DNA of 64,000 nucleotides from Candidatus Firestoneibacteriota bacterium (GCA_013286205.1 JABDGD010000003.1:16558-80557); one strand, 5' to 3'; shown: positions 13,263 to 40,283, numbered from the stretch's first letter. Notes: generated by a model not told the origin, from the letters alone. A program made the numbers and translations.

Positions 13263-14342
13263 ATGAAACAACGAATCTTAGTTCCGATCTTACTTCTGCT
13301 TTTTAGCTGGGTGGTTTCGGTTCGGGCGCAGGACTGCCAAACCATTCCCGCAGATGTGCCGGTTCGTGTGGATATTGACGGCGTCAACATGGTTTCTTCC
13401 CGTTTTTATCTCAACCTCGCTTTTGGTCCCTGTGATCTGCCCTTGTCGCAAGCCGTTCCTAAAACCGCGGAAGCCGCGGTGAGCGCCATCGTCCAAACTT
13501 TGATCAGCGGAAACTTTGCCGCCTACCAAAAAACATTCTCGCCTATGGACGACACCAATGAAAAAAACGTTGAAATGGTTTTTGACTATCAATCCGCTGC
13601 CTACCAAAAAGACCCGCCGGACCGAATTACCCAAAAATACATTCTGGGCGATCTGGCTTTTTTTGTTCTGGGCGACGCCAACCGTCCTTTTCTGCACAGC
13701 CTGGTGGTGATACGGTCATCGGATAAGAATTACTATAACGGGCGGTCTTTTACACTTAATCCGTTGGTGGGAAATCTCGATGCGTCGATTAAGATTTTGC
13801 CTGAGGATTTCAAAGTTTTTGCCGATCCGCCTCAAGGAAACTATGTCACGGTTTCGGATGTTCTTCCGAATGACCACGGCGCGGTGACCTGTTTTTTTAA
13901 AGGTCAAACCGCTGATTGGAATGTTTTAAAACAACCCCTCTCGGATTACCGGGGCGCTTATACGGATCTGATAGCTTTTTATCAGTCGTCCTATCAAAAC
14001 CTTTTCAAACGGAAAGAGGAAGCTTTTTTGGATAGCTTTTCACCCGAGAGCCGTCAAAAGGTTCAGTTGTTGATCGACAACAGATCGTTTGAGGAATACG
14101 CGTTTAATACTACTTTGCCGGTACATCGCGTCAGGTTTATTTTGGATGCTGATCCGGTTTATTTCATTTATTGGAACAGTGTTGACGGAGACGGCCTTCA
14201 ATATGAAACAGTACTTAAAACCGGTGTCGGAAAGTTTGAGAGAGTGAATATTGAGCATCCCACCATGCTGGATCATTTACTGGGCGACCAGTCTTTCGCG
14301 GGAAATTTACAAAGTAAGGTGGCAGGAACTGCCGGCCAGTAA
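13263..14342 (+). CDS. Secreted hypothetical protein
   Basis: Signal peptide (LVPILLLLFSWVVSVRAQD). No recognised domain. First gene of a co-directional, tightly spaced four-gene set. Confidence 0.55.
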   Translation: MKQRILVPILLLLFSWVVSVRAQDCQTIPADVPVRVDIDGVNMVSSRFYLNLAFGPCDLPLSQAVPKTAEAAVSAIVQTLISGNFAAYQKTFSPMDDTNEKNVEMVFDYQSAAYQKDPPDRITQKYILGDLAFFVLGDANRPFLHSLVVIRSSDKNYYNGRSFTLNPLVGNLDASIKILPEDFKVFADPPQGNYVTVSDVLPNDHGAVTCFFKGQTADWNVLKQPLSDYRGAYTDLIAFYQSSYQNLFKRKEEAFLDSFSPESRQKVQLLIDNRSFEEYAFNTTLPVHRVRFILDADPVYFIYWNSVDGDGLQYETVLKTGVGKFERVNIEHPTMLDHLLGDQSFAGNLQSKVAGTAGQ

Positions 14343-14547
14343 GAAAAGCTATTAACCGATGGACCGCGCCGGTTCAGGGATTTCTGTAAATTTCCTGATC
14401 AAGTTTTCCTGTGAATAAGTGGTTAAATTTTGTGATTTGCTTATTTCCGCCGGGGTTTATTTTGTTTTAATTGCCCCTAAAACCGTTTAACCTTTATCCG
14501 TTATAAAGCTCTCCTCATCCTCTCTGGCTTCACCATTTCTGGGGGTC

Positions 14548-15780
14548 TTGATGCGAAAAACGCTGCTGATACTAACCTTCGCCGCGAGTATTTTTTTGAC
14601 GCTCAATCCGGTTTGGGCTTCTTGGTGGGTGCACGGTTTTACTAACCGATGTGAAATGGGGCCCTTCGCGACCCGGGCAGCAGCGCAAGCTTATATCAAC
14701 GAAAACAACGATACGCCGGCCAGTGATGGCGCGCCCGCCGCGACGGCTGGCCTGGCCATTTGTCCAGGCGGGAGTGATGACGTGGCCAGTTCGACCAGCT
14801 CGGTGCCGGTGGGCACTGATTCCGCTACTCAACTCGGAACTCAACTGGGAAATATGTTAGGAGACGCTGTCATCAATATGTTTCGACAGGATGAGCAGGC
14901 TGCGGCTATTCGAAGGGCTCAATATGAGGAACAAAAAAGACAGGAAGCCGAAAGAAAAAGACTGGAAGCTGAACAGCGCCGTCTGAAGTACGAGGCCGAT
15001 AAGTCGGAGGTTTTAAGCAACTTGAGAGGCTCGGCGCCGGAAGCCGGCGGTGGTTTGAGAGACGTTGATACGGCCTCCGATAACCAGGGCCTGCGAGAGA
15101 TTCATACTGATACAGATACGGCGCCGCCAGTTCGGGCTGAGGCTCCCAAAAATAATCCAGTGGTGCCGGTGGATAACAGTTTGCAAATGAGCAATTACTT
15201 CTTTGAGCTGCAAACGAGACAAGTGGGCTCAGACGGTAAGGCGTTAGTGGGTGGAAAGCCGGTTGGCTTGCCCATTGATACGACGAACATGGTCACGGCC
15301 TCTTCGACTGATTTATATCAGGCCTCAACTGAGGCCGCACCGGAAGTGGATACATCCGCGGAGATGCTCAAAGCGGGAGTGGGAGAAGCTGTCAATCAGG
15401 GCTATGACATGGCCGCGCCCGCAGTAGCCGAATCAGTTTTATCCAAATCCTTTGATGAGGCGCCCGGTGTGGAGAGTGCCTATACGGCGGCCCAGATTAT
15501 GCTTCAGATAAAAGAGGGCGACTATACAGGGGCGGGTTCGAGCTCCATTAAATTCGCTGTGGGCCACATACCGCTGGAAGGTTATGGAATCGCCTCGGCG
15601 CAGGCAGGCGGCGCGATTGTGAGCAAAACAGTTCGGGCTGATGTGATTGGTTTTTTCCAATCGGCGAACGGCGCGGTGGGCGACGACGCTTCCTGGGAAC
15701 ACGCCGAACAGCAATACAATGATATTTTTAGCCGCCTCACGACGGCTCAAAAAACCGCAGCCGCTGATATGGGGCAATAG
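14548..15780 (+). CDS. Secreted hypothetical protein with coiled-coil segment
   Basis: Signal peptide (LLILTFAASIFLTLNPVWAS) and a charged coiled-coil stretch 'RRAQYEEQKRQEAERKRLEAEQRRLKYEADKSE'. Confidence 0.55.
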   Translation: MMRKTLLILTFAASIFLTLNPVWASWWVHGFTNRCEMGPFATRAAAQAYINENNDTPASDGAPAATAGLAICPGGSDDVASSTSSVPVGTDSATQLGTQLGNMLGDAVINMFRQDEQAAAIRRAQYEEQKRQEAERKRLEAEQRRLKYEADKSEVLSNLRGSAPEAGGGLRDVDTASDNQGLREIHTDTDTAPPVRAEAPKNNPVVPVDNSLQMSNYFFELQTRQVGSDGKALVGGKPVGLPIDTTNMVTASSTDLYQASTEAAPEVDTSAEMLKAGVGEAVNQGYDMAAPAVAESVLSKSFDEAPGVESAYTAAQIMLQIKEGDYTGAGSSSIKFAVGHIPLEGYGIASAQAGGAIVSKTVRADVIGFFQSANGAVGDDASWEHAEQQYNDIFSRLTTAQKTAAADMGQ

Positions 15781-15782
15781 AA

Positions 15783-16763
15783 ATGAAAACAAACTCCCTT
15801 CTTCTAGTACTGGCGGTCGTTTTAGCGGTGAACGTGATGGGCTGTCTCAAAAAGACGGCTAAAAATACGGCCTTTGTGCCGGGTACGGCGCTGGCATTGC
15901 CGGTCGATCAAGGTGTCAAGGTGGGCTGGGCGGTTCCACCGCTGGGTGAGGGCGTGGATACATCCCAATGGGCTTCCTGCCAATTTGTGGTGGATGGCCG
16001 GGGAGATTGTTGGCTAAAAAAGGGTTCCAATATTTTGATGAATGTTTCCAAGGGATTTTCGTTTCAACTGGATAAAGATATTGATGATTTTGTCTGGCTG
16101 GATGGCGGCGATCTTCAAATCATTTCCGGCAATCTGCTGGGGACTGTAGAAGTGGCGCTAAAACATGAGCATTCGCCGAAAGGTCTGTTACTGGTTCATT
16201 TTAAGCCCGAATTAAAGCTTCCGGTCAATTCACCCCGATTCACCCAGGCGGGTCCCCATGGTATTTACATTTGGGGCTCCAATCCTAAAACCTCCAAAAA
16301 CGAGATCTATTTTTTCAGCGCGTCCGGCAAGGCAATTCAAGTGCTTTTCGCGTCTGATGAAAAAATTGGGGCAGTGGGCGGTGACGGCGTAAGAACTTTC
16401 GCGGCGGTGGACCACCTGATACTGGAACTTTCAAAAAAGAAGATGACGGGCCTCTATCAGGATCCGAAGAACCCGATTCAAAGTCTTAATTATTCCAAGT
16501 CGATGGGTCTTTTTTACCGTACCGCTTCGGGTGTTTCTTATCTAAATCCGGACAATCGAAAAGATATTGAGTTCTTCCGGTCGTTAAATACCCAAGTTGG
16601 TCTGAAGAATGATGTTTTGTATCTCTGTCTGGGAGAATCTTCCGGTGTGATCAAAATCACCGGTCTTGAGGTTTTGGATCAGTTTAAACCTGTTCCGTCG
16701 GCCGCGGCTGACGGAACGCAAAAAGTGCAGTCGGTTGACAATGCCAAAAAGCGCTCATCTTAA
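15783..16763 (+). CDS. Hypothetical lipoprotein
   Basis: Lipobox-like 'LAVNVMGCLKK'. Its start codon lies 3 nt after the previous stop, so translational coupling is likely. Confidence 0.55.
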   Translation: MKTNSLLLVLAVVLAVNVMGCLKKTAKNTAFVPGTALALPVDQGVKVGWAVPPLGEGVDTSQWASCQFVVDGRGDCWLKKGSNILMNVSKGFSFQLDKDIDDFVWLDGGDLQIISGNLLGTVEVALKHEHSPKGLLLVHFKPELKLPVNSPRFTQAGPHGIYIWGSNPKTSKNEIYFFSASGKAIQVLFASDEKIGAVGGDGVRTFAAVDHLILELSKKKMTGLYQDPKNPIQSLNYSKSMGLFYRTASGVSYLNPDNRKDIEFFRSLNTQVGLKNDVLYLCLGESSGVIKITGLEVLDQFKPVPSAAADGTQKVQSVDNAKKRSS

Positions 16764-16773
16764 GGGGGACGGT

Positions 16774-17997
16774 ATGATTTATCGCAGGACTATGTCGGTG
16801 ATGGGAAGTTTGATTCTTTTGTTCGGATGGCTGTCTGTTTCGCCAGCTCAAGCGGAAAACGCCAAACTTCAAGAGCTCATCACCAAGCTAAGAGAAAATC
16901 CGCGCTATGACGCGAATATCCGCGTGGAGATTATCAAATATGTCCAAAGCATGAGGGTAAAGCCGCCTATGCCCGAAGGATTGGATGAGGCGATGGGAAA
17001 GGCCAAGTACATTCTGAATAATGGCGAAGACAAGCAAGCTTTCGCGAATGCCGCGGCGGCTTACCGGGAGGCGTCTTTATTAGCCCCCTGGGTCGCGGAC
17101 ATTTATTACAACCTGGGCACTATGCGTGAAAAAGCGGGACAGACCACCAATGCGTTAATTGACTACAACCTGTATCTTTTGGCCAGGCCAAACGCTCCGG
17201 ATAAAAAAGCGATTAAAGAAAAAATTGGGGCGATGGAATACGCTTCCCATACCACCTTCAAGGACATTCTGTCTCCGGGGCAGGGAAAAATGGTTTTGAT
17301 CCCCGCGGGAGAATTCACGATGGGGTCGCCGGTCAGCACCGGCGGCTGGAATGAACAGCCCGAGCATAAAGTTTATGTCGACGCTTTTTACATGGATAAG
17401 AATTTGGTCACTCAGCTTGATTGGATGGAATATTGCAAGGCTTCGGGCGTCGACGCGCCAATAGACGAGGGTCCGAACTTTCCCGTTTATGGCATCACCT
17501 GGGCTCAGGCTGATGCTTATGCCAAGTGGGCTGGTAAACGCCTGCCGACCGAAGCGGAATATGAAAAAGCTCTGCGGGGCGGCACCACGACAAAGTGGTT
17601 TTGCGGGGATGACCCCGATCAATTGGCCGAATATGCCTGGTATGGTGTGAACTCGAACCATGAAGTTCACGAGGTGGGGCAGTTGAAGCCGAATCCTTAT
17701 GGTTTATATGACATTATCGGTAATGTCAGCGAATGGTGCTCAGATTGGTATGGCGATCAGTATTACAAAGATAGCCCGGAAAAAAATCCACAGGGGCCAA
17801 ATAAGGGCGGGGATAAGGTTCTGCGGGGCGGTTGGGCCTACAGCGATGCCAATAACATACGCTCAGCCTATCGTATTCGAAATAATCCCACCTGGTTTCA
17901 TGGCGACAATGGCGACTGGTTTGGGCTTCGCTGCGTGATGGATCCCAGCCCGGATGACCCGGCTGTGAAAAAAACGAAGAAGAGTAAAAATAAATAG
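16774..17997 (+). CDS. Secreted TPR-like + FGE-sulfatase (SUMF1/PvdO/GldK-fold) domain protein
   Basis: FGE-sulfatase domain signatures 'MVLIPAGEFTMGSP', 'NLVTQLDWMEYC', 'GLYDIIGNVSEWCSDWY', 'VLRGGWAYSD...RSAYRIRNNP'. The N-terminal roughly 170 aa is helical/TPR-like with a signal peptide. The start was set to ATG 16774 (AGGGGGA SD). Confidence 0.7.
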   Translation: MIYRRTMSVMGSLILLFGWLSVSPAQAENAKLQELITKLRENPRYDANIRVEIIKYVQSMRVKPPMPEGLDEAMGKAKYILNNGEDKQAFANAAAAYREASLLAPWVADIYYNLGTMREKAGQTTNALIDYNLYLLARPNAPDKKAIKEKIGAMEYASHTTFKDILSPGQGKMVLIPAGEFTMGSPVSTGGWNEQPEHKVYVDAFYMDKNLVTQLDWMEYCKASGVDAPIDEGPNFPVYGITWAQADAYAKWAGKRLPTEAEYEKALRGGTTTKWFCGDDPDQLAEYAWYGVNSNHEVHEVGQLKPNPYGLYDIIGNVSEWCSDWYGDQYYKDSPEKNPQGPNKGGDKVLRGGWAYSDANNIRSAYRIRNNPTWFHGDNGDWFGLRCVMDPSPDDPAVKKTKKSKNK

Positions 17998-18067: not shown

Positions 18068-19054
18068 TTACGGAATATATTCGTAGATATGGTTGCCGGG
18101 TGAATTGTTGCGGTCGCTAAAGTAAACATCGCCCGTACTGTCCACCGCAATACCCTGAGGTCCGACAATCGCCGGGGAAGTGAATGCCGGGGTGACGCTG
18201 CCGCCGCTGGGGCCTACCAGAGTACTGACTGTCGCGCTCGACACTTTGCGGATGGCGTTGTTGCCTGTGTCAGCTACGTAAACGTTGCCGCTGCCATCTA
18301 CCGCGATAGCTTGGATGCCGTTGAACTTGGCGGTCGTGGTGGCCGCGCCGTCAACATAGGCGCCCGCGCCTATTTGGCCCGCGATGGTGGTGCTGCCAGA
18401 GACGCCGGGGGTGTATTTGACAATCAAGTTGCCCTGGGCGACATAAAGACTGCCGGTGTTGTCGAAAACCAAGCATTCTTCTCCTGATGGGCCGCTGGAA
18501 AGAGTAATGTTGCCGAGTACGCTAAAAGCAGGAAGGGAATATAAAGTGACCGCGCTGCCGCTGGATAAGGCCATGGTAGTCGCGGCGGAGTTGATCGCGA
18601 CACCGCTGATGCTGCTGGTGGCGGTAATCGGCGAGGTAGTCACAGCGGCGCTATTTCTATAAATGAAATAGGGGCTGGTGGTTCCTGTAGACATATACCA
18701 GTTGGTACCGTCATAGACCACATCCGAAACGGCCGGGATTTGGGGTGTCAGCTGAGTTGTCACGCCCGCGGAAGTTACCTTAATCAGATTGGAAGTGGCG
18801 CCGGAGCCGTTATAGTCTGCGGCGTAGAGATTACCCGAGTTGTCCAAACAAATTCCCATGATGGAAGCCGCGCCTGAAAAGGTGACGATAGTTTTGACCG
18901 AGGGAGTCGGCGTGTTGGTGGCGGTGGGAGCGGGGGTAGGGGTATTGGTGGGGTTGCTGGAGTTGGAGCTGGTAGGCGTATTATTGCCGCAAGAAACTAA
19001 AAACGAAGCGATGGGCGCCAACAGCAAAGTCAAAACCAAGATCAACTTTTTCAT
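18068..19054 (-). CDS. NHL-repeat (six-bladed beta-propeller) lipoprotein
   Basis: Lipobox 'FLVSCGNN', a Thr/Pro linker (TPTPAPTATNTPTP), and NHL-type repeats ('DNSGNLYAADYNGSG', 'DNTGSLYVAQGN', 'VDGSGNVYVADTGNNAIRKV', 'DSTGDVYFSDRNN'). Confidence 0.65.
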   Translation of the reverse strand: MKKLILVLTLLLAPIASFLVSCGNNTPTSSNSSNPTNTPTPAPTATNTPTPSVKTIVTFSGAASIMGICLDNSGNLYAADYNGSGATSNLIKVTSAGVTTQLTPQIPAVSDVVYDGTNWYMSTGTTSPYFIYRNSAAVTTSPITATSSISGVAINSAATTMALSSGSAVTLYSLPAFSVLGNITLSSGPSGEECLVFDNTGSLYVAQGNLIVKYTPGVSGSTTIAGQIGAGAYVDGAATTTAKFNGIQAIAVDGSGNVYVADTGNNAIRKVSSATVSTLVGPSGGSVTPAFTSPAIVGPQGIAVDSTGDVYFSDRNNSPGNHIYEYIP

Positions 19055-19361
19055 ACGAACTCTCCCGCGGATATTTTTAAAGGACCCCCGGTATCTGAGG
19101 TTCTATCAACACGAGCAATAAAGCTAACTCAAATCCAACGGTGCTTCAACCCCCGGGTAGGTAAATTAACCCAGCTTTTCTGGCCCCTCATTATATAGAT
19201 CAGGTGCATCCCCTTTTATTGGGAAGCAGGCTTGCATCGGGCTTCTAGGCTCAACGCGGGGCGGGCCTGGCCCAGCGGACAAACGATAGTACAAAAGCCT
19301 AAAAGCGGTATGAGCCTTAAGGCACCAGCGATAGTCTTCTTCCAACAAGGGAGGAGACTCG

Positions 19362-22300
19362 ATGAGCGCTCACTACAAACAATCGATAACGTTTTTAACG
19401 GTTTCGAGGTTTTTCAACTTCGCTCTTTTCGGCTATTTGTTTCTGGCTCTTTCCACACCGCTGGGGGCTACCAGCGCCACTACGGGTACTGATCAGTTTG
19501 GCCGTACTTGCGATCTGGTGACCTGGACCGATTCCACGGGCAACCCCCGCACCGTTTGGATTGTTAACCAGACCCCCGGCAGTTTTATTTCCAAGATGAC
19601 CTATTATGCGGGCGGCTCTCTGGTCACGGCCACTGTACCAACCACAGGCTTCGCTTTTTGTACTTTGGTCAATCACTATTACAGCGCCAGCACCAACTTC
19701 AATGACAACTTCGGCGGCAATTACACTTCCAATAATGGGGCCAGCAATCCGGCCAGCGCCCAGCCGGGGGGCAGCACTTACGTTTCGGGCGCGGGCGTCA
19801 CCCGTACCATCGCTTTCGCGGGCACTCACCATTTGATCTGGCAGGGCAACTTTCAAATGTACGCCCATCCCTGGGAATCGGCCGAAGAATGGTACATCAC
19901 GGTTCAATACACCTTTATGGATGGCCGTGACGACTTCATTTTTAGCGACGCTTATGACTCGGGCGCTATTTCTCAGGCCAATCTGGGTTCTTCCAATCTG
20001 GCGCCCTATGACGACTTTAGTTACGACGGTGTGGGCGACTCGCAAACTGATCCACAAAGCGGGATTGGTTTTGGAACAAATTATAAGTTCGCCACCAATT
20101 ACGCCTCCGGCGCTTCCTTAAGCGCGAGCACGGGCTGGACTTATAACACCGCCAACACCATTCCTTATGCCTGGATGTACAAAGACGGCACCAAGACCAA
20201 CCGCGAAATGGGAGAAATACAGAACCAGCCTTATAGTGAAAAAGACGCGGGGTATAACGCCTACTGGGCAATGACCGCTCCGCCCTCGACAGGCGTGACT
20301 ATGCCGTCTACTTTGCCCTTTCAACTGAACGAATTTGCCAGCTATGTAGGTATGCGCTTTACCTGGGGCACCCAATACACAGCTTTTCAAAACAATCATA
20401 CGGATGGTCAAAGCGCCTATGGGGCTGGCGGTCCGACGGGTTCGTGGAATGTTTATCCGGTCAATGCCGCCAGCTTCAATGTTCTGATCGATCAATACAC
20501 CAATCAGGGCGTGCCCAATTTAATTACAGATACGGAAAATATTTATAAGTCCACTTTGACGGCCGCAGTGGGGACGGTGGTGACGACGGGCCCCAAAGGT
20601 CCCGGTTCTTATATGTCTCCTGCCACTGGCAGCATGCCCTCGATGACCTATACCCACCCGGGTTTTGATTTTGTGATGCGCCGCTGGAGAGTTACCTGCG
20701 CCGCGGGAGCCGCGGATGTGACTTTGAATGCGGGAGGAACGGGTCTTTATCACCTCACCTTTACCTTTGAAAATCTGACTTCTACGCCCTGTTCACTCAC
20801 GCTCAATGGGACGCTTCAGGTCGGCGGTACGGATTATTTTGGATCTTTTGACTCAACGAACCAAATTTACTATGTCACCTTCGCCAAAACCCTGGCGGCG
20901 GGTTCAAACCATATCGTACTTCAAACCGCTTGCGGGTCACCCACCAGCACCCCTACGGTTACTAACACAGGCACCTCTACGAGCACGTCTACTATGACGC
21001 GGACTATTACGCCTACGGCCACTTCGACTTCCACGGCCACGGGCACTTTACCCACTTCTACTTTCACGCCTACTTATACGATAACTCCCATTCCTACCAG
21101 CACTCCCACCATTACGGCAACGCCTTCGGGCATTATTAAACCGAACTTAAAAATCTGTTTTATCGGCGACTCCATTACCTATCGGGGCAATTATGTGAAA
21201 CAGGTAGAAAATTACCTGACGACTATTTATCCCACTTACAACCTTACTTTCACGAACGTCGGGGTAGGGGGATGGACCTCTACCCAATTTCTTCAATACA
21301 CCGGCAGTGAACCGACGGGTTTGGGTTATGTGTTGAATACGGTTAAGCCTGATATCGCGACTATTTGTTTTGGTATGAATGACGCGGGTTACACCAGTGA
21401 AGCCGCCAGCTATTTAAACCAATTCATTTCCAGCATGACTTCGATCATTACCCAGCTTCAAAGCGCGGGGGTGTCGGTAGTTTTGTTGACGCCCGGCATG
21501 GTGGATCTGACGGTTCCTTATGCCTCGAACCCCGCCAATATTCCGGCGGACTATAACACCAACACCAGCTATGGCCTGGCCGCTTACGCGAATTGGGTGA
21601 TGAACTATGGCGCTACCAATAACATCCCGGCTTTTAATGTTCACACGCTGGCGATGTCGGTGAACGCGGCGGCCCGGGCGGCTCACACGGGCCTGCCGGC
21701 TTATACGGATCAACCGCAGGACGGTATCCATCCAAATCCCTCCGGCGGCTTGGTTTACGCTTATGGTTTGTTGACCGCATTAGGCGTGCCTACTCAAAAC
21801 CGCACCATTACTTTAAGCGGCGGTTCGCTCACGGGTTCAGCGGGCGCGGCCACAGGATCCTGGATACCCAGCGGCAATGGCGGATCCTTTACTCTGACCG
21901 CCAATCCCATGCCTTATATCGGCAATCCGCAGGCGGCTAAAATATTGCCGTTCCTGAATTTTCAGCAGACCTTTAACAACATTCATTTCACCGCTAGCGG
22001 TTTATCCGCGGCTAACTATTACATTGTGGTGGATGGTTATCAGGCCGGGCCGGTTTCGTCCTCGGCTTTGTCTTCGGGAATCAATCTGTTGGATTACTGG
22101 ATACCGCCCGCTACTTCACCCTCTCAGATTCATACGGTTCAATTGGTGGATGCCAGTACGACGACAGCAGCCTGCTACAACACGCTGATTGATGATGGGG
22201 AGAAGAGCAATGACTTTCCGCAGATCGCTCCTTTGGGCGGCAATGTTCCCTGGCCGGAAAATCTCTGGGGCGGTTGGTGGTGGTCAGGCGCCAGCAGCGG

Positions 22301-23849
22301 CGCCGCGGGTTCTTTCTCGCCCAGCCCTTTTATCATGACCAGCCCGGGCTATAGCTCTACTTACGCCGCCAGCATGTCGGGCACAACTAACTTGTCCAGT
22401 TCCAGCACCACGGCGCTTTTGCAATGCGCCTGCTATACCCAATATGTGAATCCGCAAAACGGGGTGCAGTTCATGTTCAAAGGCACTGCGGGCGAATCCT
22501 TCCGCTTTCAATGTCATATCGAGCTTGAAGACGCGAAACCCCAGTACAACGATTATGGCTCTACCTTTACGGCGACGGGCAGCTGGCAGTTAGTTCAATG
22601 TCCCTATTCGGCCATGACTCAGCCCACCTGGGACACGCTGTTTACTTTTGATCCGGGACAAATCGAGGAACTGGAATGGATACCTTATTCCAACGGCGCT
22701 TTCACTATGAGCGTGGACAATGTGTCTTTCTATTGCACCAGCCCGGCCTATACCCCCACCGCCAGCAATACGCCCACCAAAACGATGACCTATACTTCTA
22801 CTCCGGCCGTGACCAACACCAGCACAGCTACCAACAGCGCTACGAACACGGCGACTAATAGCTCAACCAACACAGCGACCAACACCGCGACTAATACGGT
22901 CACCAATACGGCTTCCAACACCGCTACCAACACAGCTACGGATACTTATACGTCGACCGCCACGAGTACTTTTACGACGACTATTACCAATACCGCTACC
23001 AATTCGCCCACGGTGACCGTCACCAATACGGGAACCATCAACACGCCTACGATCACCAATACGCCCACGGCGACGGGAACCTCTACCATGACCAACACAC
23101 CAACATTAACCGCGACCGCCACCATCACGAATACGCCGACCGCTACTTTCACCGCCTCGTTTACGGCGACACTCACGGATACGAGCACGGCGACCAACAG
23201 CGCGACGAACACCTGCACGAATACAGCGACTAATACCGCCACCAATAGTTATACGGTGACCGACACAGCCACGATAACCAACACGCCCACCACTTCTTGG
23301 ACGCCTACGAATACCAATTCATCTACCGCGACGAATACGCGCACCGCCAGCCCTACGGCGACCAATAGCCCGACGGCTTCCTGGACGCCCACCAATACCA
23401 ATTCGTTTACGGCGACCGCCACGCCGACAAATACTTCCACCAAAACTTTTACGCCCACCGCGACCGCTACCTGGACAGCCACCTCCACTCAGACGTTAAC
23501 TTTTACGCCGACCAGCACCCTTACGGTTACACCCACGGCCATTACGGGCGTTATTTGCACCGCGCCTTATCCGAATCCAGCGACTACGGGGCCGATTGAA
23601 ATTGACGTGACCACGCCAGGCGCGGCGACGATCGAAATGGATATCTTTTCTACGGCCTTCCGTAAAGTCATCGAGCACACGATTCAGGCGGCTGGCGGCA
23701 ACGGACCTTTAGGAACCGTCACCAGGGTCCAATGGGACCTGCGCGACCGGATGGGTGTGAAAGTCGCGGATGGCCTTTATTACGTCCGTATTCACGTCTC
23801 GGGTGCCAAGACTTTTAACAAGATCTACAAGGTTTTGGTTTTGAGGTAA
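19362..23849 (+). CDS. Giant (1495 aa) secreted multidomain protein: N-terminal unknown domain, SGNH/GDSL esterase domain, Thr-rich linkers, T9SS-type C-terminal sorting domain
   Basis: Signal peptide. SGNH blocks at about 21130-21800 ('ICFIGDSITYRGN', 'GVGGWTS', 'GMNDAG', 'DGIHPNPSGG'). Two Thr-rich linkers. The C-terminal roughly 85 aa ('APYPNPATTGPIEIDV...GLYYVRIHVSGAKTFNKIYKVLVLR') matches the Por/T9SS CTD pattern. Confidence 0.8.
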   Translation: MSAHYKQSITFLTVSRFFNFALFGYLFLALSTPLGATSATTGTDQFGRTCDLVTWTDSTGNPRTVWIVNQTPGSFISKMTYYAGGSLVTATVPTTGFAFCTLVNHYYSASTNFNDNFGGNYTSNNGASNPASAQPGGSTYVSGAGVTRTIAFAGTHHLIWQGNFQMYAHPWESAEEWYITVQYTFMDGRDDFIFSDAYDSGAISQANLGSSNLAPYDDFSYDGVGDSQTDPQSGIGFGTNYKFATNYASGASLSASTGWTYNTANTIPYAWMYKDGTKTNREMGEIQNQPYSEKDAGYNAYWAMTAPPSTGVTMPSTLPFQLNEFASYVGMRFTWGTQYTAFQNNHTDGQSAYGAGGPTGSWNVYPVNAASFNVLIDQYTNQGVPNLITDTENIYKSTLTAAVGTVVTTGPKGPGSYMSPATGSMPSMTYTHPGFDFVMRRWRVTCAAGAADVTLNAGGTGLYHLTFTFENLTSTPCSLTLNGTLQVGGTDYFGSFDSTNQIYYVTFAKTLAAGSNHIVLQTACGSPTSTPTVTNTGTSTSTSTMTRTITPTATSTSTATGTLPTSTFTPTYTITPIPTSTPTITATPSGIIKPNLKICFIGDSITYRGNYVKQVENYLTTIYPTYNLTFTNVGVGGWTSTQFLQYTGSEPTGLGYVLNTVKPDIATICFGMNDAGYTSEAASYLNQFISSMTSIITQLQSAGVSVVLLTPGMVDLTVPYASNPANIPADYNTNTSYGLAAYANWVMNYGATNNIPAFNVHTLAMSVNAAARAAHTGLPAYTDQPQDGIHPNPSGGLVYAYGLLTALGVPTQNRTITLSGGSLTGSAGAATGSWIPSGNGGSFTLTANPMPYIGNPQAAKILPFLNFQQTFNNIHFTASGLSAANYYIVVDGYQAGPVSSSALSSGINLLDYWIPPATSPSQIHTVQLVDASTTTAACYNTLIDDGEKSNDFPQIAPLGGNVPWPENLWGGWWWSGASSGAAGSFSPSPFIMTSPGYSSTYAASMSGTTNLSSSSTTALLQCACYTQYVNPQNGVQFMFKGTAGESFRFQCHIELEDAKPQYNDYGSTFTATGSWQLVQCPYSAMTQPTWDTLFTFDPGQIEELEWIPYSNGAFTMSVDNVSFYCTSPAYTPTASNTPTKTMTYTSTPAVTNTSTATNSATNTATNSSTNTATNTATNTVTNTASNTATNTATDTYTSTATSTFTTTITNTATNSPTVTVTNTGTINTPTITNTPTATGTSTMTNTPTLTATATITNTPTATFTASFTATLTDTSTATNSATNTCTNTATNTATNSYTVTDTATITNTPTTSWTPTNTNSSTATNTRTASPTATNSPTASWTPTNTNSFTATATPTNTSTKTFTPTATATWTATSTQTLTFTPTSTLTVTPTAITGVICTAPYPNPATTGPIEIDVTTPGAATIEMDIFSTAFRKVIEHTIQAAGGNGPLGTVTRVQWDLRDRMGVKVADGLYYVRIHVSGAKTFNKIYKVLVLR
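22749..23544 (+). repeat. In-frame tandem degenerate 18-bp repeats encoding (T-N-T-A-T-N)n Thr-rich linker
   Basis: DNA reads accaacacagcgaccaacaccgcgactaatacggtcaccaatacggcttccaacaccgctaccaacacagct..., a long run of ACN-AAY codon periodicity. It generates the spurious antisense poly-Val ORFs 22946..23488. Confidence 0.7.
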
Positions 23850-23861
23850 TCGGGAGGGATC

Positions 23862-25712
23862 GTGTTGCTTGACGGAGCAGGGACCATGATCGAGAATAAA
23901 GAACCGATGAAGAAACCCTTGAATCCTCCCATCGATCCATTGAGGAGCGCGGTTGTTCAAAGCGACCTCCTTAACCTTTTTGACAATTACATTCCTTTGC
24001 CCGGCTATCTGGTTCCGGCGGGACAAGAGTATTTTTGGTACGGCCTCACCCCCAACCCCCGGGGGCTCCATCCTTTTCAATTTGAGCTGTATTTCGGCAA
24101 GAAAAAGCAAAGACATGATTACAACCGGCGCTGTTTTCAAAAAGCCGCCAAGACGGGTAAGGCGGTGCTGGGCTGTCACCAGGGCCTTTACGATCTTTTT
24201 GTGCCTGTGGTGGATAAAGGGAAAGTCATCGCTTTCGTCGTATCAGGTTCCTTCTTAAAAACTCTGCCGTCGGAAAACTGGTTGACGGGGCAGTGGAAAG
24301 TCTTGTCGGGCCGGCAGCCCGCAGCTAATGACATGGAATTTTTAACTTACGCTCGGGTCATGATGAGTACACCGGTTTTGAGCCGGACCGTCATTGCCGA
24401 TTACACCCGTTTATTAGAAAACATGGGGCAATTTACTTTGGGCGGCGCTTCTAGCGCCCGCGCGGGCGAGGAAATTCAGCGGCTGAGGGCGAAAATATTA
24501 ATCTCCGGCCTGCCTACCCGGATGATCCACTATGTTTCCACGAAAAGAGACCGGCTCAGCTGGGGACCCTGGGAAGGGGAAGATTTGGCTCCTTGGGATC
24601 AGGAAGAATTTGGTTTGTCCCGTCATCCCAATACGGTTCTGGCGGTACGGCCCCAATGGGTCGGCGCTCAGTCGCCGCTGAACCGAATTGTGCAGGCCGC
24701 GCGGCTGCAGCGTTTTAGCTACGATTGGTGCGGTTCGCAAAAAGAAATGGTGGCCGGTCCTTTGGAAGGGGAAGGCTGCTTTCTTTTAACCTCGCCGGAC
24801 ACGAAGAAAAATCAGGCGCAGGCCCAATTGCAGATCAGGGATATGACCCGGCGTTTTTCCGAGGCGGTTCATCAGACCCTTCATTTAAAAGTGGTGGTAG
24901 GGATCAGCCGGGTGGGCGCGGCGATTGAGGACTTGCCCGAATATTTTCATCAAGCGCTGACCGCTTTGCGTTTCGCGGGCCACTTGAAACAATCGCCTTA
25001 TTTTTACGGCGACTTTCCCCAGGCACCTCAGGAAGGTTTTTACGGTTTGTCCCGGGAAATGGCCCAGGCGATTGGCGAGGGAAAAGAGGGGCAGGTTTCA
25101 GTTATTCGGGGTCAATTGGTACAGGAAGCCTTGCGTCTCTCGGGCGGCAGTCCGGACAGTTTACGGATTTATTTTTTACATTTGTTTTATCTGGTCTGGG
25201 ACGAAATGGCCCGCCGGGCGATCCTCAACGAGAGCGAGTTTCAAACTTACCGCAAATCGCTGGAAGAAAAACTGGCCCAGGCTTTCTCCGTTGAAGAGCT
25301 GCTTCAACGATTTCAGGAATTGGTCGAACAGGCCATTCGAATGTTTGAATCGCCCGCGGAGGGTACGCGGCTGGAGAGGCTGGAGGCGGCCCGGCGTTAT
25401 ATGGCGCTCAATTGCCGCCGCAAACTGACGGTCGGCGAAGTCGCCCGGGAAACGGGCTTTTCGGTGTCGCGGTTCAGCCACCTTTTTCACGAGGTTTTTG
25501 GCGAAAGTTTTATCGATTATTTCACCCGGCTTCGCTGCGAGGAAGCGGGCCGTCTGCTGAAAACCAGCTCTCTGTCCGTGGCTCAGGTGGCTCAGACTTG
25601 CGGTTTTGGCACCTCCAGCCATTTCACTCATATCTTCAAGCAAAGAGTGGGCTGCACTCCGGTGGAATACCGCCTCGCGGGGCAGCCGAAAGACGACATC
25701 AAAAAAGCCTAG
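23862..25712 (+). CDS. AraC-family transcriptional regulator with large (~500 aa) N-terminal sensory region
   Basis: C-terminal AraC HTH: 'LTVGEVARETGFSVSRFSHLFHEVFGESFIDYFTRLRCEEAGRLLKTSSLSVAQVAQTCGFGTSSHFTHIFKQRVGCTPVEYR'. The true start may be ATG 23886 or 23907. Confidence 0.75.
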   Translation: MLLDGAGTMIENKEPMKKPLNPPIDPLRSAVVQSDLLNLFDNYIPLPGYLVPAGQEYFWYGLTPNPRGLHPFQFELYFGKKKQRHDYNRRCFQKAAKTGKAVLGCHQGLYDLFVPVVDKGKVIAFVVSGSFLKTLPSENWLTGQWKVLSGRQPAANDMEFLTYARVMMSTPVLSRTVIADYTRLLENMGQFTLGGASSARAGEEIQRLRAKILISGLPTRMIHYVSTKRDRLSWGPWEGEDLAPWDQEEFGLSRHPNTVLAVRPQWVGAQSPLNRIVQAARLQRFSYDWCGSQKEMVAGPLEGEGCFLLTSPDTKKNQAQAQLQIRDMTRRFSEAVHQTLHLKVVVGISRVGAAIEDLPEYFHQALTALRFAGHLKQSPYFYGDFPQAPQEGFYGLSREMAQAIGEGKEGQVSVIRGQLVQEALRLSGGSPDSLRIYFLHLFYLVWDEMARRAILNESEFQTYRKSLEEKLAQAFSVEELLQRFQELVEQAIRMFESPAEGTRLERLEAARRYMALNCRRKLTVGEVARETGFSVSRFSHLFHEVFGESFIDYFTRLRCEEAGRLLKTSSLSVAQVAQTCGFGTSSHFTHIFKQRVGCTPVEYRLAGQPKDDIKKA

Positions 25713-25800: not shown

Positions 25801-26901
25801 TTGAAAGCGGGGACCGCTATGAAACGATCTCTTTGGGGATGGGCCTTTGTGGCTAGTTTTCTCGTTCTAGCGCCGCCAGTCGGCGCGCAAGAAAAGCCCG
25901 CGCAAGCGATCGCCTTTCCGGATCCGAAACTACCGGTCTTTGGTCTGCCCTGGTTTAAAGAAGACTCGCCCTTACTTTGCCGCCTGCCAGCCCGGTTAAA
26001 AAAAACCTTTACCCCCAAAGTGTGGGAATTAGCCCGATGCCCCTCGGGCGGCCGAATTCGTTTCCGTACCAACTCACGAAAACTTACCTTAACGGCCAAG
26101 TGTGAGAGTGATTACACCATGTATCACATCACCAGTATTGGGCAGAATGGTTTTGATCTTTATGTGGACGGTTTTTACCAAGGCAGCACTCAGGCGGTGG
26201 GGCCGGACCGGAAAGAAATAGGCGAGTGGGATTTAGGCCCGGCCGGAGTCGACAAAGAAGTCACAATTTATATGCCGCTCTACAAAGCGGCCACGATTCA
26301 AGAAATTGACCTGGATGAAAAGGCCGAAGTGAATCCGCCCCGTTCTTTTGCCCAGCCCCATCCAGTGGTTTATTACGGCACCAGCATTACCCAGGGAGGC
26401 TGCGCGTCCAATCCGGGTATGAGTTACGCGGCTATTTTGGGCCGCCGGCTGGATTGCGATTTTGTGAATCTGGGGTTTAGCGGCAACGGCAACGGCGATA
26501 TCGCGGTAGCCAAAGCCATCACAGAACTTCAACCCTCGGCCATTGTGCTGGATTATTGGGCGAATGTTTCCGCTGAGCAAATGGGGAAAACCCTGTCCTC
26601 TTTCGTGAAGATACTCAGGGAAAAATTTCCCGAAGTTCCGATCTTTGTTATCACCCCTTACTACACGATCACTGGCATCAATCAAGAACTGAAAAAATCG
26701 GAAGTGGATTTGGTGACGGCCCGGCAAAAAAAAGGAGACGCCCATATCCAATGGATCGACGGCGAAACCATGATCAGCCGAAAGACCGCTTACGCTTTAG
26801 TGGATGGTATCCATTGCAACACTCTGGGATTTAAATTAATGGCGGATCAGTTGGAAAAGCCCCTGCGTAAAGTGATTTTGCCGAAAGGGAGAGGCCGATG
26901 A
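25801..26901 (+). CDS. Secreted SGNH/GDSL-family hydrolase (carbohydrate esterase-like) with N-terminal beta-sandwich domain
   Basis: Signal peptide (MKRSLWGWAFVASFLVLAPPVGAQE). SGNH blocks 'YYGTSITQGG', 'GFSGNG', 'DGIHCNTLG'. Confidence 0.75.
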   Translation: MKAGTAMKRSLWGWAFVASFLVLAPPVGAQEKPAQAIAFPDPKLPVFGLPWFKEDSPLLCRLPARLKKTFTPKVWELARCPSGGRIRFRTNSRKLTLTAKCESDYTMYHITSIGQNGFDLYVDGFYQGSTQAVGPDRKEIGEWDLGPAGVDKEVTIYMPLYKAATIQEIDLDEKAEVNPPRSFAQPHPVVYYGTSITQGGCASNPGMSYAAILGRRLDCDFVNLGFSGNGNGDIAVAKAITELQPSAIVLDYWANVSAEQMGKTLSSFVKILREKFPEVPIFVITPYYTITGINQELKKSEVDLVTARQKKGDAHIQWIDGETMISRKTAYALVDGIHCNTLGFKLMADQLEKPLRKVILPKGRGR

Positions 26902-27947
26902 TCATCCATCCAAACCATCCCTGGATTCAATATTCGGGCAGAGTTGATGTGAGCGACCAGATGACCGCCCGCTTTGATTGGCCCCTGACGGGTGTGACTG
27001 CCGCGTTTGAAGGCAAGGGGATTGGGTTTCTTTTAGAAGACGGTAAGAATAATTATGATGTTTATGTGGATGGACAATTATTCGGTGTCTGGGTAACCAG
27101 CAGCGCCATTGAAGAATATGAGGTGACAGGGCTCAAACGGGGACGCCATGTTTTGCAGGTTATTAAGCGCACTGAATCCAGCTGGGGAACCGCAATTTTC
27201 AAAGGTCTGGTTCTCCCCAAGGGTACGGTTTTAGCTGAACCGCCTAATCCTTCGGAGCGGCGCATTGAAATTATCGGTGACTCTATCTCCGCGGGTTATG
27301 GCAATGAGGGATCGAATTTTCTTTGCGCTGATTTGAGGCCTTTTCAGAATGCCAATCAAGCTTATGGCGCGATGCTGGCACGGCGATTCGCGGCGGACTG
27401 CCATGTGGAAGCCATCTCAGGCAAAGGCCTGGTACGCAACTGGGGAGATTTTAAAAAAGTCTCACCTGATCCAATGCCGATTTATTTATCCAATACGCTG
27501 GGGTTATATCCCGGTGTGCCATGGAATTTTAATAGCTGGATTCCTGATGTGGTGATTTTGTTCCTGGGAACCAATGATTTTTCCACCAATCCCAAGCCAG
27601 ACCCAGACTTTTTTGTTTTGGCTTACGAAAAGTTGATACAAAAGATTCGAGGTCATTATCCTAAGGCGTGGATTCTTTGTCTGGGCCGAAAGGATATGCC
27701 GGACATGGCGTCCGCGGTATGGGATGCGGTTCACCGGGAAAAGAAAATAGGAAATATCCGATTAAGGTATATCTCCATTCAGCCTTTTAACGCCGCAGAT
27801 ATGGGCTGCGACGGCCATCCCAAGGTGGCGGATCATAAGCGATTGGCTGATCATTTAACGCCTTTTATCGCCCGTTTATTGAAGTGGCGCAAAGCGCCAG
27901 CCCTTTCCAGACGCCATTCCTCAAAAAAGACCCCGTTGAAAGTTTGA
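26898..27947 (+). CDS. CE2-like acetylesterase (N-terminal jelly-roll + SGNH hydrolase domain)
   Basis: N-terminal beta-sandwich region, then 'IEIIGDSISAGYGNEG' (GDS block), 'GTNDF' and 'DGHPKVADH'. ATGA overlap with the upstream esterase points to an operon. Confidence 0.7.
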   Translation: MIIHPNHPWIQYSGRVDVSDQMTARFDWPLTGVTAAFEGKGIGFLLEDGKNNYDVYVDGQLFGVWVTSSAIEEYEVTGLKRGRHVLQVIKRTESSWGTAIFKGLVLPKGTVLAEPPNPSERRIEIIGDSISAGYGNEGSNFLCADLRPFQNANQAYGAMLARRFAADCHVEAISGKGLVRNWGDFKKVSPDPMPIYLSNTLGLYPGVPWNFNSWIPDVVILFLGTNDFSTNPKPDPDFFVLAYEKLIQKIRGHYPKAWILCLGRKDMPDMASAVWDAVHREKKIGNIRLRYISIQPFNAADMGCDGHPKVADHKRLADHLTPFIARLLKWRKAPALSRRHSSKKTPLKV

Positions 27948-31007: not shown

Positions 31008-34000
31008 ATGAAATTTTTTAAATTATTAATCTTTCGTCTCTTTTTGACTGAATTGATGGCAATAGGCGCTTCGCCCGTTCTGCCCAATACCCTGTCATAC
31101 CATTCTCCCGCTCCGGTTCGTCCGGCTTCCGCGTCCACAAATGCGGGCGGTAGCTTTCAATCCAATTACGGCAAACTGTCTTTGGCTTTCGAGCCCAATG
31201 AAGGTCAAACCGATTCCCGGGTCAAGTTTCTCGCTCGGGGGGCGGGCTATAGCCTTTTTCTGACGAACGATGAAGCGGTTTTTGTTTTGAAGCCGAATAA
31301 GACAAATCGTGCGGGCAAGTTTCCGAAAATCAAATCAAGAGAATCCGCTGCTGAAGGGAAACCGGACGAGGTTCTGCGCTTGGGGTTGGCGGGCGCCAAT
31401 CCACAAGTTCGTTTTGAGGGACTGGAAGATTTAGGCGGGAAAAGCAATTACCTCATCGGCAACGACCGTACCCAATGGCGCACCGGTATTTCCCAATATG
31501 CGAAGGCGCGGATGAATCAGGTTTATTCCGGCATCGATATGGTCTACTACGGCTACCAGGGCCGATTGGAATATGACTTTGTGGTGGCCCCGGGTGCAGA
31601 CCCTAAAATCATCAGCCTTCAATACAAGGGCGCGCAAAGCGCTGAGGTGGATACGGACGGGAATCTGGTTTTTCAAATGAACGCGGGAAATGTGTCTTTC
31701 AAAGCGCCTGCGGTTTACCAAATGGTTGGAGAACAAAAACAGCCAGTCGCGGGCCGCTATGTGATTCGACAGGATCAAAGTATTGGTTTTGAGGTGGGGA
31801 GCTATGACGAGGCCCTTCCACTGGTGATCGACCCGGTGCTGGATTATTCCACCTATATCGGGGGTAACACTTTTGATCTTACAGCTCAACTGGTGGTGGA
31901 TTCGGCCGGCAACGCCTACGAAGTGGGCGGAAGCACCTCCACGGCTTACCCCACCACTGCGGGCGCTTTCCGGACGGTCTACACCGGATCAGAAGATGTG
32001 ATTGTCTCCAAGCTCAACTCGACGGGTACCGCTCTCATTTATTCCACTTATCTGGGCGGGACCAACGCGAGCGATGGTTTAGGTATTGTTCTGGACGGGT
32101 CGGATGACGCTTATGTGACGGGCTATACCGCTGCTACCGATTTTCCCACGACGGCGGGCGCCTATCAGTCGCTGGTGAGAGGACCTCAGAATGCTTTTGT
32201 CACTGAACTGAATCCGTCGGGTTCGGGCCTGGTGTTTTCCACCTATCTGGGCGGAGGGGGTGACGATAACGGCAATGGCATCGCGCTTGATTCCACTGGA
32301 AACGTCTGCGTCGTGGGTATTACCAGTTCCACCAATTTTCCTACGACCGCTGGGGTTTACCAGCCAGCTTATGGGGGGGGCTCCAACGACGGTTTTGTGA
32401 CTAAGCTAAACTCGACGGGTACAGGCCTGATTTTTTCGAGCTACATCGGCGGGAGTGACAATGATCAGGCTTTGGGCATCGCGTTGGATGGGGCGGACAA
32501 CCTTTATATTACGGGCTTTACGCATTCCGCTAATTTTCCCCATACAGCGGGCGCGGCTCAGGCGGCCTTAGCGGGCCCGGTGAACGGATTTATCACGAAA
32601 ATGAACACAGCGGGTACGGCCTTACTCTATTCCACTTTTTTGGGGGGCAGCGGCAGTGGCTTGAACGGGGATGTTGCGGTCGCCATCGCCATTGATTCAT
32701 CGGGGAATGCCTATGTGACGGGCTATGCCACTTCGACGAATTTTCCCATCACTGCCGGAGCGGCTAGTTCTACCCATGTGGGCACGTTGGACGCTTTCGT
32801 GACCAAACTGAATGCGGCGGGATCGGCCTGGGTCTATTCCACTTATCTGGGCGGTTCCGGATCCTTAAACTATGGCCGGGGCATCACGGTAGATTCATCC
32901 GGAAATGCCTATGTGGCGGGTGAGACGAGTTCGGCGACTTTTCCGACGACGGCAGGAGCCTTCCAAACGGCTTTGATGGGGTCCATCGCCGCTTTTCTCA
33001 CCGAAGTAAATCCGACAGGTACGGGTTGGCTTTATTCCACTTATTTGGGTGGAAGCGGCGCGGACGAAGGAGAGTCTGTCGCGCTGGACTCGGCCGGTGC
33101 TATTTATGTTTCGGGAGACGCGGGGTCCCTCGATTTTCCGATCACGGCGGGAGCTTACCAGACAACTTATGCTGGCGGAAGTTCGAATACTTTTGTTACC
33201 AAATTCGACGCCGCTGATTTTGTGGCGGCGCCCACGGGAACGGTCAGCCCCACCTTTAGTCCGACGGCGACCTTTACAGCTACGACTACTTGGACCCCGA
33301 TGGCCGCCACAGCCACCAATACGCCGGGTGGATTTACCTCGACTAATACTCCTACGCCTTCACCCACTAATACTACTGGAGTGGTGTTTACTGCCACAAC
33401 CATACCCGGCGGCGGCTGCTATGACTTTGATGATTTCGATGAGGGTCCCTGGAATAATCCCATCCCCAGTTATTTGACGCAATTTTTCAATCAAAACGCG
33501 TCTCAAGCCACCTCCATCAATAACAATATCTTTCAAACTTATGCCGGGTCCATCGGCAGTCTTCAAGACGCGATTACCTTTACGGGTTCCGGCAACCTGG
33601 CCGAGATGGATGTGTTGAACGGCGTTAGTTATGGGGCTTCGGTCGATGTACAGACCGGTGGCGTGAATCCTACCACCTTTAGTTTTGAAATGAATCCTTC
33701 TCAAACTATCACGCTGACGAAATTTTATATTTGGGATGGATCGACACACGCGGTTACGGTGAATCAGACGATTCCCGCCAATACCTGGACCAACGTAGTG
33801 GTGAATCTGACTTCCATTACCTTTAACGACCTCGCGGTGAGCGGCGTGATATTTGATATGACCAGCCCCCCGTCGGTGAGCACTTTCCCTTACGTCTCAA
33901 ACGTCCTGTTTGATAATTTCAGTTTCTGCGGGACGGGCACGGCTGTTCCGACAACCGGAAGTACTTTCACCAGTACAATCACGCCCACTATCACTCCTAC

Positions 34001-36588: not shown

Positions 36589-36650
36589 AGAAACGAGTCT
36601 CCCTGCGCCAAGGCTTCGGGAGACGGGGCAAAAGCCCCGGGAACTTATAT

Positions 36651-37700: not shown

Positions 37701-37767
37701 AGGATAATTTTGAATTTTGAATTAAAGTCTAAATCTTAAAATAATTAAAATTTAAAATTAGACGAAA

Positions 37768-38838: not shown

Positions 38839-38853
38839 TCAATAGAAAGAGTT

Positions 38854-40182: not shown

Positions 40183-40283
40183 AACCCTTCTTTTGACCCC
40201 ATTCGGGGCGATGACAATCTTTAAATATCCCCTGAAATCTGCCTATAATAGCCCCTCTTTTATTCCCTCTTGAGGAGTCTCCC

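Follow-up and report, generated by a model that had tools for sequence, protein, structure and literature searches.

The closest solved counterpart of the enzyme described here is a GDSL/SGNH hydrolase of Bacteroides thetaiotaomicron (7BR2), a putative oligosaccharide deacetylase whose N-terminal part is catalytic and whose C-terminal part serves in binding (PMC9862828). FCPU426, the candidate lineage that holds its nearest relative, belongs to the rare biosphere (PMC10434106); the FCPU426 16S cluster has been linked to Goldbacteria, and one member has been shown to degrade cellulose (PMC7031533). We analyzed a 64,000-nucleotide stretch of bacterial DNA (GCA_013286205.1, JABDGD010000003.1:16558-80557; hereafter the window, with positions counted from its first nucleotide) and focused on an ATG-initiated open reading frame (ORF) at 19362..23849 on the + strand, which encodes a protein of 1495 aa. 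We propose, with a probability of roughly 0.55, that this protein, from an FCPU426 bacterium, is a secreted glycan O-acetylesterase built of several modules and carries a diverged tag resembling the type A signals of the secretion system known as type IX (T9SS). The assignment as a glycan O-acetylesterase rests on gene context and homology, and judged from sequence the protein most likely removes acetyl groups from plant-type polysaccharides. Behind a predicted signal peptide, it consists of an N-terminal module (N-module), a threonine-rich linker, an SGNH esterase domain, a beta-domain, a module resembling a carbohydrate-binding module (CBM), a second Thr-rich linker, and a C-terminal domain (CTD).

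The Pfam family PF13472 (Lipase_GDSL_2) matched aa 600-795 of the protein with E = 9.5e-19 and a score of 69 bits, above the cut-off of 32.9. Within the SGNH/GDSL esterase domain (aa 593-805; 21138..21776 on the + strand, as for all parts of this gene), block I reads FIGDSIT, with GDS at 602-604 and the catalytic serine at S604; block II reads GVGGWT at aa ~634-639, with the oxyanion Gly at ~637; block III reads GMND at 671-674, including N673; and block V reads DGIH at 787-790, supplying D787 and H790. No residue of the Ser/Asp/His triad or of the oxyanion pair, Gly and Asn, is missing, which together with the above-threshold score places the domain among the SGNH/GDSL hydrolases. A preliminary description of this DNA, made from the sequence alone, had recognized the SGNH domain and called the protein probably an esterase and possibly a glycan deacetylase; blocks I, II, III and V bear out the first point, and the relatives and neighbors described below make the second probable. 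By sequence, the nearest solved structure was 7BR2, whose chain residues 20-338 aligned with aa 596-910 (E = 8e-7). Because this alignment spans both the catalytic domain and the beta-domain that follows it (aa 806-960; 21777..22241), the protein contains a two-domain unit of the 7BR2 kind. The beta-domain is common to 7BR2 and to the distant relatives P0004-P0009 (26-34% identity), which cover the SGNH domain plus ~130 aa.

The CTD (aa 1399-1495, 97 aa; 23556..23849 including the stop codon) resembles both divergent T9SS type A CTDs and the immunoglobulin (Ig)-like domain of FlgD. Its motifs run YPNP ... FSTAFRKV ... DGLYYVRI ... KVLVLR, and the C-terminal sequence quoted in the preliminary description is found here. 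We aligned 10 CTDs of this type (A4) and, separately, seven canonical T9SS CTDs from the same protein family (A5). Comparing A4 with A5 in hhalign gave a probability of 81% (E = 1.2e-5) across 66 columns that begin at YPNP and reach the GxY strand. When the A4 profile was searched against the whole PDB, matches were restricted to FlgD-Ig domains and the C-terminal domains of T9SS-type or secreted hydrolase proteins: FlgD Ig domains ranked first (7EH9/7BHQ, E = 8.5e-4), and the list included the PorU CTD (6ZA2 residues 1061-1150, E = 5e-3), the 75-aa CTDs of T9SS substrates (8GLJ_D, 8GLK_D) and the C-terminal domains of two secreted hydrolases (8jmw, 7pzj). On the Pfam model FlgD_ig (PF13860), the isolated CTD scored 14.2 against a cut-off of 27, and all of its sub-threshold matches were to the extreme C-terminus of T9SS proteins (PorU, PorZ and T9SS-dependent M6/M36 proteins) or to the FlgD Ig domain. 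Sister CTDs scored 15.1, 16.0, 20.9, 20.9, 22.9 and 29.6 bits on TIGR04183, the last of these (P0061) exceeding the cut-off. Homology support is moderate for reading this CTD as a diverged subfamily within the T9SS type A CTD/FlgD-Ig superfamily.

The distribution of the CTD provided a second line of evidence. In this lineage, six or more unrelated kinds of passenger carry the same CTD, and in each of them it forms the extreme C-terminus and follows a Thr-rich linker. In the same genome, it ends a DUF7948/SBBP beta-propeller protein of 1061 aa (E = 2e-12), which has a long Thr-rich linker of its own and is encoded at 1046-4228 of contig L005, ending ~600 nt upstream of window position 1; its CTD reads '...DIFTLAFRKI...NGLYYLRF...KIYKVLIAR'. 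On related contigs, the CTD ends a giant protein combining glycoside hydrolase family 8 (GH8) with CBM11/CIA30 (E = 1.9e-13), an F5/8-type-C protein (E = 7e-21), a protein with little else than the supersandwich fold described below, and several others; one CTD-bearing fragment is labelled Candidatus Goldiibacteriota. This recurrence on many passengers indicates that the CTD behaves like a sorting tag. Between our protein and its FCPU426 ortholog, the CTD is 39% identical and the folded modules are 80-83% identical, indicating that the CTD evolves much faster than its passenger. Two further observations concern proteins of this general kind. A second giant secreted protein of 1480 aa (window 31008-35450, +) combines DUF7948, SBBP beta-propeller repeats, beta-sandwich modules and Thr/Pro-rich linkers with a FlgD-Ig-like tail, 'YNWDGRNKFGNPCASGVYIIILV', that matches our CTD profile weakly (E = 0.026). 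In contigs from two unrelated metagenomes (L008 10479-17047 and L010 2446-9266), a CTD-bearing protein is followed by a conserved gene set encoding proteins of ~810 aa and ~737 aa that match no family in Pfam or NCBIfam; next come the genes for a CBM9_1-like protein of 247 aa and, after it, a CIA30/CBM11-like protein.

The N-module (aa 37-525; 19470..20936) had been described as a domain without a recognizable family, and it indeed matched nothing in Pfam or NCBIfam; a sequence search of the PDB was also empty. A word-indexed homolog search returned just two close relatives, and an exhaustive HMMER profile search returned 241 clusters (defined at 50% identity) at E<=1e-3, 176 of them at E<=1e-10. 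Most of these clusters span profile positions ~110-485, indicating a core with an optional N-terminal subdomain. One relative, P0001 (647 aa), consists of the N-module, a short Thr/Pro linker and a homologous CTD only, and the module is therefore autonomous. The structure prediction and fold search suggested in the preliminary description gave a confident AlphaFold model (79-sequence alignment; pLDDT 91.3, pTM 0.93) with a small beta subdomain, a supersandwich core and an Ig-like C-terminal subdomain. Foldseek matched this model to PDB entries for aldose 1-epimerases, heparinase II, the C-terminal domains of GH38 alpha-mannosidases, chitobiose phosphorylase, PL26 rhamnogalacturonan lyase and LacZ domain 5, with E = 1.4e-5 to 1e-3 and probabilities up to 1.0. 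Template modelling (TM) scores normalized on the target structure were 0.4-0.5 for the epimerases, and scores normalized on the query were 0.3-0.36. As modeled, the core is a galactose-mutarotase-like beta-supersandwich, an assignment at the level of fold rather than family because TM scores are 0.3-0.5 and identity is ~8%; neither our protein nor any of the 79 family members matched the Pfam aldose 1-epimerase family (PF01263). This fold occurs throughout carbohydrate-active enzymes.

Most members of the N-module family are secreted: a hydrophobic N-terminus is present in 111 of 141 (~79%). Fusions to CE4 polysaccharide deacetylases occur in two members, and a fusion to CBM30 in one. Family members end in the CTD type described here, in FlgD-Ig-type or MYXO-CTERM-like tails, in classic Bacteroidota T9SS tails (Por_Secre_tail), or in SLH or dockerin domains; these ends are lineage-specific surface anchors. 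The near-invariant polar residues H105, H157, D199, Y216, E282, Q321 and W335 (protein numbering) are retained in our protein, and the ordered H, H, D, E and Q conserved in the family, compared with the residues of GalM, hint at a sugar-binding pocket.

The CBM-like beta-sandwich module (aa 961-1127; 22242..22742) follows the beta-domain of the catalytic unit. The preliminary description had treated this part of the protein as a single middle domain of ~300 aa without a family; it instead comprises two modules, the 7BR2-type beta-domain and the CBM-like module, each with relatives. The CBM-like module had no Pfam match in our protein, and the ortholog fragment P0003 showed a faint similarity to CIA30 (CBM11). 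As a family defined solely by a local iterative jackhmmer search, the module recurs in ~40 of 150 relatives of the N-module, in many of them immediately before the supersandwich on its N-terminal side. The two modules are habitual partners that probably address the same substrate. In the ortholog on contig L006 (ENA ERZ26871208 contig_234800_np1212), which frameshifts divide into P0002 and P0003, the CBM-like module is present in one additional copy, placed between N-module and SGNH domain, indicating that module number varies among close relatives.

A strong Shine-Dalgarno sequence read directly from the DNA, GGGAGGAG (19349..19356, +), lies 5 nt upstream of the ATG. By a heuristic reading of the hydropathy profile, aa 1-36 (19362..19469) form a signal peptide with a basic n-region (K6 and R16), a hydrophobic stretch at aa 17-30 and predicted cleavage after LGA, which is followed by TS, near aa 36. 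The mature N-terminus that results, T(S)GTDQFGR, aligns with orthologs whose signal peptides differ. Both linkers were delimited by composition: linker 1, rich in Thr, Ser and Pro, covers 67 aa (aa 526-592; 20937..21137) with 43% Thr, and linker 2 covers 271 aa (aa 1128-1398; 22743..23555) with 44% Thr, imperfect repeats of 12, 24 or 36 nt and four N-glycosylation sequons. The secreted ORF of 1495 aa and the long Thr-rich linkers reported in the preliminary description are thus both present. NCBI, JGI/IMG and Logan all record the identical protein on a contig of 98 kb, and the window overlaps two Logan contigs from run SRR8424006. Because a GTDB genome, the FCPU426 metagenome-assembled genome that contains contig L007, encodes an ortholog of 1400 aa with the same architecture, the ORF is no assembly artefact. 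Scans for promoters and terminators around the gene gave counts within chance and no operon call, and the window yielded no match in tRNA or Rfam scans.

The linkers also have consequences for gene calling. Their ACC/ACG repeats yield long, spurious antisense ORFs rich in Val and Gly, for example at window 22946-23245 on the - strand, and similar ORFs are found in L008, L010, L011 and L012; public gene calls therefore split such proteins. A conserved cluster that seemed to be headed by stand-alone, CTD-only proteins of ~100 aa was rejected as a gene-calling artefact of this kind. Reading from stop to stop showed that the apparent CTD-only proteins, P0162-P0183 (80-160 aa), are the ends of long proteins.

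The genes downstream of the esterase provided the gene context for its assignment. Directly after it, at 23862..25712 (+; called start 23907), lies an AraC/PocR-type regulator (Pfam HTH_18/HTH_AraC; NCBIfam PocR/AraC C-terminal). It is followed by a second SGNH esterase with GxDLY and Lipase_GDSL_3 domains (25801..26901, +; Pfam E = 4e-35 and 2e-22) and a signal peptide, and then by a CE2-type esterase with CE2_N and GDSL domains in Pfam (26898..27947, +) and no obvious signal peptide. The two genes overlap by 4 nt, and the presence of a signal peptide on the first but not the second suggests that their products work in different compartments. The CE2-type esterase aligned over its full length with the NCBIfam model AxeC2 (acetylxylan esterase/glucomannan deacetylase), scoring 119 bits against an equivalog cut-off of 500. 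The fourth gene downstream encodes a GGDEF protein. In FCPU426 contig L007, the esterase gene, the AraC-type regulator (78% identity), the GxDLY esterase (67%) and the GGDEF gene (80%) are found in the same order, and the order of regulator and GxDLY esterase is also seen in L006, a frameshift-rich long-read contig. Upstream and divergent from the esterase gene, at window 18068-19054 (-), is a gene for an NHL-repeat beta-propeller lipoprotein with the lipobox LVSC and a short Thr/Pro linker.

Scanning GTDB genomes with a close alignment (A1) identified a single species representative encoding a close relative, 'candidate division FCPU426 bacterium isolate clean3', at 83% identity. The preliminary description had placed the host in or near the Fibrobacteres-Chlorobi-Bacteroidetes (FCB) group. 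That placement is unsupported because the nearest genome, with its conserved gene order, is FCPU426, which NCBI taxonomy files under Bacteria candidate phyla rather than under the FCB group. Five Glyco_transf_9 (heptosyltransferase) genes, an outer-membrane beta-barrel protein and TolC/MacB indicate that the host is a diderm bearing lipopolysaccharide (LPS). Four of the Glyco_transf_9 (heptosyltransferase-like) genes lie at window 35509-44273, together with genes for an unannotated 441-aa protein, a class IV aminotransferase and a YfhO-like membrane protein, and the fifth lies just upstream of the window in L005; this cluster suggests the synthesis of an elaborate LPS core or surface glycan.

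A number of findings count against the reading of this protein as a glycan O-acetylesterase with a T9SS-type tag. A whole-protein scan against NCBIfam returned no match. When the isolated CTD was searched with TIGR04183 and PF18962 (Por_Secre_tail), a check that the preliminary description had put forward, it scored 16.6 bits (cut-off 23) and 16.7 bits (cut-off 27), below both curated thresholds. The window and ~30 kb of flanking sequence, ~95 kb of the genome in all, contained no T9SS component, in line with the earlier remark that the window lacks T9SS core genes. Surveys confine the T9SS to Bacteroidetes (PMC4793230) or to the FCB superphylum (PMC12398890), and the host lies outside both Bacteroidota and the FCB group. 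In the N-module, the clade of our protein has S211 and L213 in place of the D and R of the family motif D-x-R-x-P-Y (aa 211-216; window 19992-20009), in which 73 of the 79 members have D, 75 have R and all have P-Y; this swap may have altered the specificity of the module or abolished its site. Last, some sources name relatives 'lysophospholipase L1-like esterase'.

The points that concern the CTD, together with the FlgD Ig domain being the best PDB match of its profile, favor an alternative in which the CTD is a generic FlgD-Ig-like beta-sandwich with a role in structure, adhesion or anchoring and with no secretion signal. The host would then lack a T9SS, and the enzyme would cross the outer membrane by another route, such as the type II secretion system, or stay in the periplasm or associated with a membrane. 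Against this alternative stands the tag-like distribution of the CTD, which on unrelated passengers is confined to the extreme C-terminus, preceded by a long linker. Further points against it are the end-to-end alignment (YPNP to GxYY...K.L.LR) with bona fide type A CTDs, the sister CTD that passes TIGR04183, and the recognized sorting tails that N-module relatives from other lineages carry at the equivalent position. We consider it a serious but doubtful account. Of the T9SS-type CTD claimed in the preliminary description, the remote type A homology and the tag-like distribution stand, and membership in TIGR04183 or PF18962 at their cut-offs does not. That the protein depends on a real T9SS is plausible, at odds slightly short of even.

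Candidates for T9SS machinery near the gene were examined individually. Scanning unannotated proteins, including the products of three upstream genes, for PorV, PorP, GldLMN and similar components at permissive thresholds returned nothing. These three consecutive genes (window 13263-16763, +; 359, 409 and 326 aa) had no Pfam or NCBIfam match even at E<=0.1. A protein with the FGE-sulfatase fold (window 16792-17997, +) was rejected as PorK/GldK: it scored 71 bits against a cut-off of 350, matched EgtB better and has no lipobox. This protein is secreted, has an N-terminal region resembling tetratricopeptide repeats, and scored 42 bits on GldJ, a similarity at the superfamily level. Our literature searches found no paper on secretion in Goldbacteria or FCPU426, whether by the T9SS or by another system.

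A different alternative concerns the substrate. The SGNH domain could belong to a lipase, a lysophospholipase or a general esterase with lipids or small esters as its substrates, as the Pfam name 'GDSL-like lipase/acylhydrolase' and the JGI names of P0005 and P0009 ('lysophospholipase L1-like esterase') would have it. These labels are generic family names, and what surrounds the domain speaks for carbohydrate instead: 7BR2, the solved relative closest to it, shares the two-domain unit and is a putative oligosaccharide deacetylase (PMC9862828); the other modules of the protein include a carbohydrate-type supersandwich and one resembling a CBM; its conserved neighbors are CE2 and GxDLY carbohydrate esterases; N-module relatives are fused to CE4 deacetylases and CBM30; and other CTD proteins of the lineage include one with GH8 and CBM11. 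We regard lipid or small-ester hydrolysis as improbable. That the protein serves chiefly as a surface structure or adhesin, resembling an S-layer or a fibril, and that its modules are decayed or enzymatically irrelevant, is very improbable: its great length, its 19% Thr, its 338 linker residues and the two substituted N-module residues would fit, but the triad and oxyanion residues are intact and the folded modules, far better conserved than the CTD, indicate that purifying selection acts on the parts for catalysis and binding.

Returning to the glycan O-acetylesterase reading, we hypothesize the following course of events. The protein would be exported by the Sec pathway in a diderm FCPU426 (Goldbacteria-related) bacterium, after which the CTD may direct its translocation across the outer membrane, its retention at the surface, or both, through a T9SS or T9SS-like pathway. 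The catalytic unit, an SGNH esterase fused to its beta-domain as in 7BR2, would be flanked by two modules of the glycan-recognition type, the supersandwich N-module on one side and the CBM-like beta-sandwich on the other. The Thr-rich linkers, probably extended and possibly O-glycosylated, would space these modules and could keep the enzyme and its C-terminal end tens of nanometres apart. Together with the GxDLY esterase, the cytoplasmic-looking CE2 esterase and the AraC/PocR regulator, the protein may form a locus that deacetylates hemicellulose or pectin-type glycans in stages, with acetylated plant glycans presumably processed at the surface, in the periplasm and in the cytoplasm.

The locus offers a view of extracellular enzyme design in uncultured FCPU426/Goldbacteria, in which very large, modular proteins with long Thr-rich stalks share one tag. 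If this tag is T9SS-dependent, the documented range of the T9SS would reach beyond the FCB superphylum; if it is not, a CTD-like Ig domain would have been recruited to another route of surface display. The N-module searches delimit a sizeable extracellular supersandwich family that lacks a Pfam or NCBIfam model and is a candidate for CAZy-type characterization. More tentatively, and with some skepticism on our part, the CTD subfamily could mark a working type IX or type IX-like sorting system for giant polysaccharide-degrading enzymes in FCPU426/Goldbacteria, with the supersandwich family (at least 241 clusters, across phyla) constituting a new carbohydrate-active catalytic or binding family. 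For annotation, the fragmentation of Thr-rich linker proteins by gene callers is a hazard.

Compared with described systems, each part of the protein has a counterpart from which it departs. As in 7BR2, a beta binding domain lies C-terminal to its SGNH catalytic domain; whereas 7BR2 is a stand-alone protein of 450 aa, our protein, at low identity, sets this unit among a supersandwich, a CBM-like module, Thr-rich linkers and a CTD. It shares SGNH chemistry with the CE2 and GxDLY/SGNH carbohydrate esterases (e.g. AxeC2), but its SGNH domain lacks their CE2_N or GxDLY N-terminal domain and, in this analysis, received no CAZy CE family. With galactose-mutarotase-like domains, the N-module shares its core fold as detected by Foldseek; it differs from them in its identity of ~7-10%, with no sequence similarity, and in its extra N-terminal and Ig-like C-terminal subdomains. 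The CTD shares the 'nG.Y' strand with the FlgD Ig-like domain, which is internal in a flagellar hook-cap protein, whereas the CTD is terminal and tags secreted enzymes. With T9SS type A CTDs (TIGR04183/PF18962), it has in common the extreme C-terminal position, a length of ~75-95 aa, an N-terminal (Y)PNP, a central 'v.iy....r.i' strand and an ending of the form 'G.Y...i......K.l.l+'; in contrast to them, it has 'T.AFR' in place of the 'D..G+' turn and an extra insert of ~15-20 aa, CTDs of its type are always found behind very long Thr-rich linkers, and its host is FCPU426 rather than a member of Bacteroidota/FCB. A CTD-tagged modular carbohydrate esterase is familiar; the unfamiliar elements are its lineage, its subfamily of CTD and a supersandwich family that no model covers.

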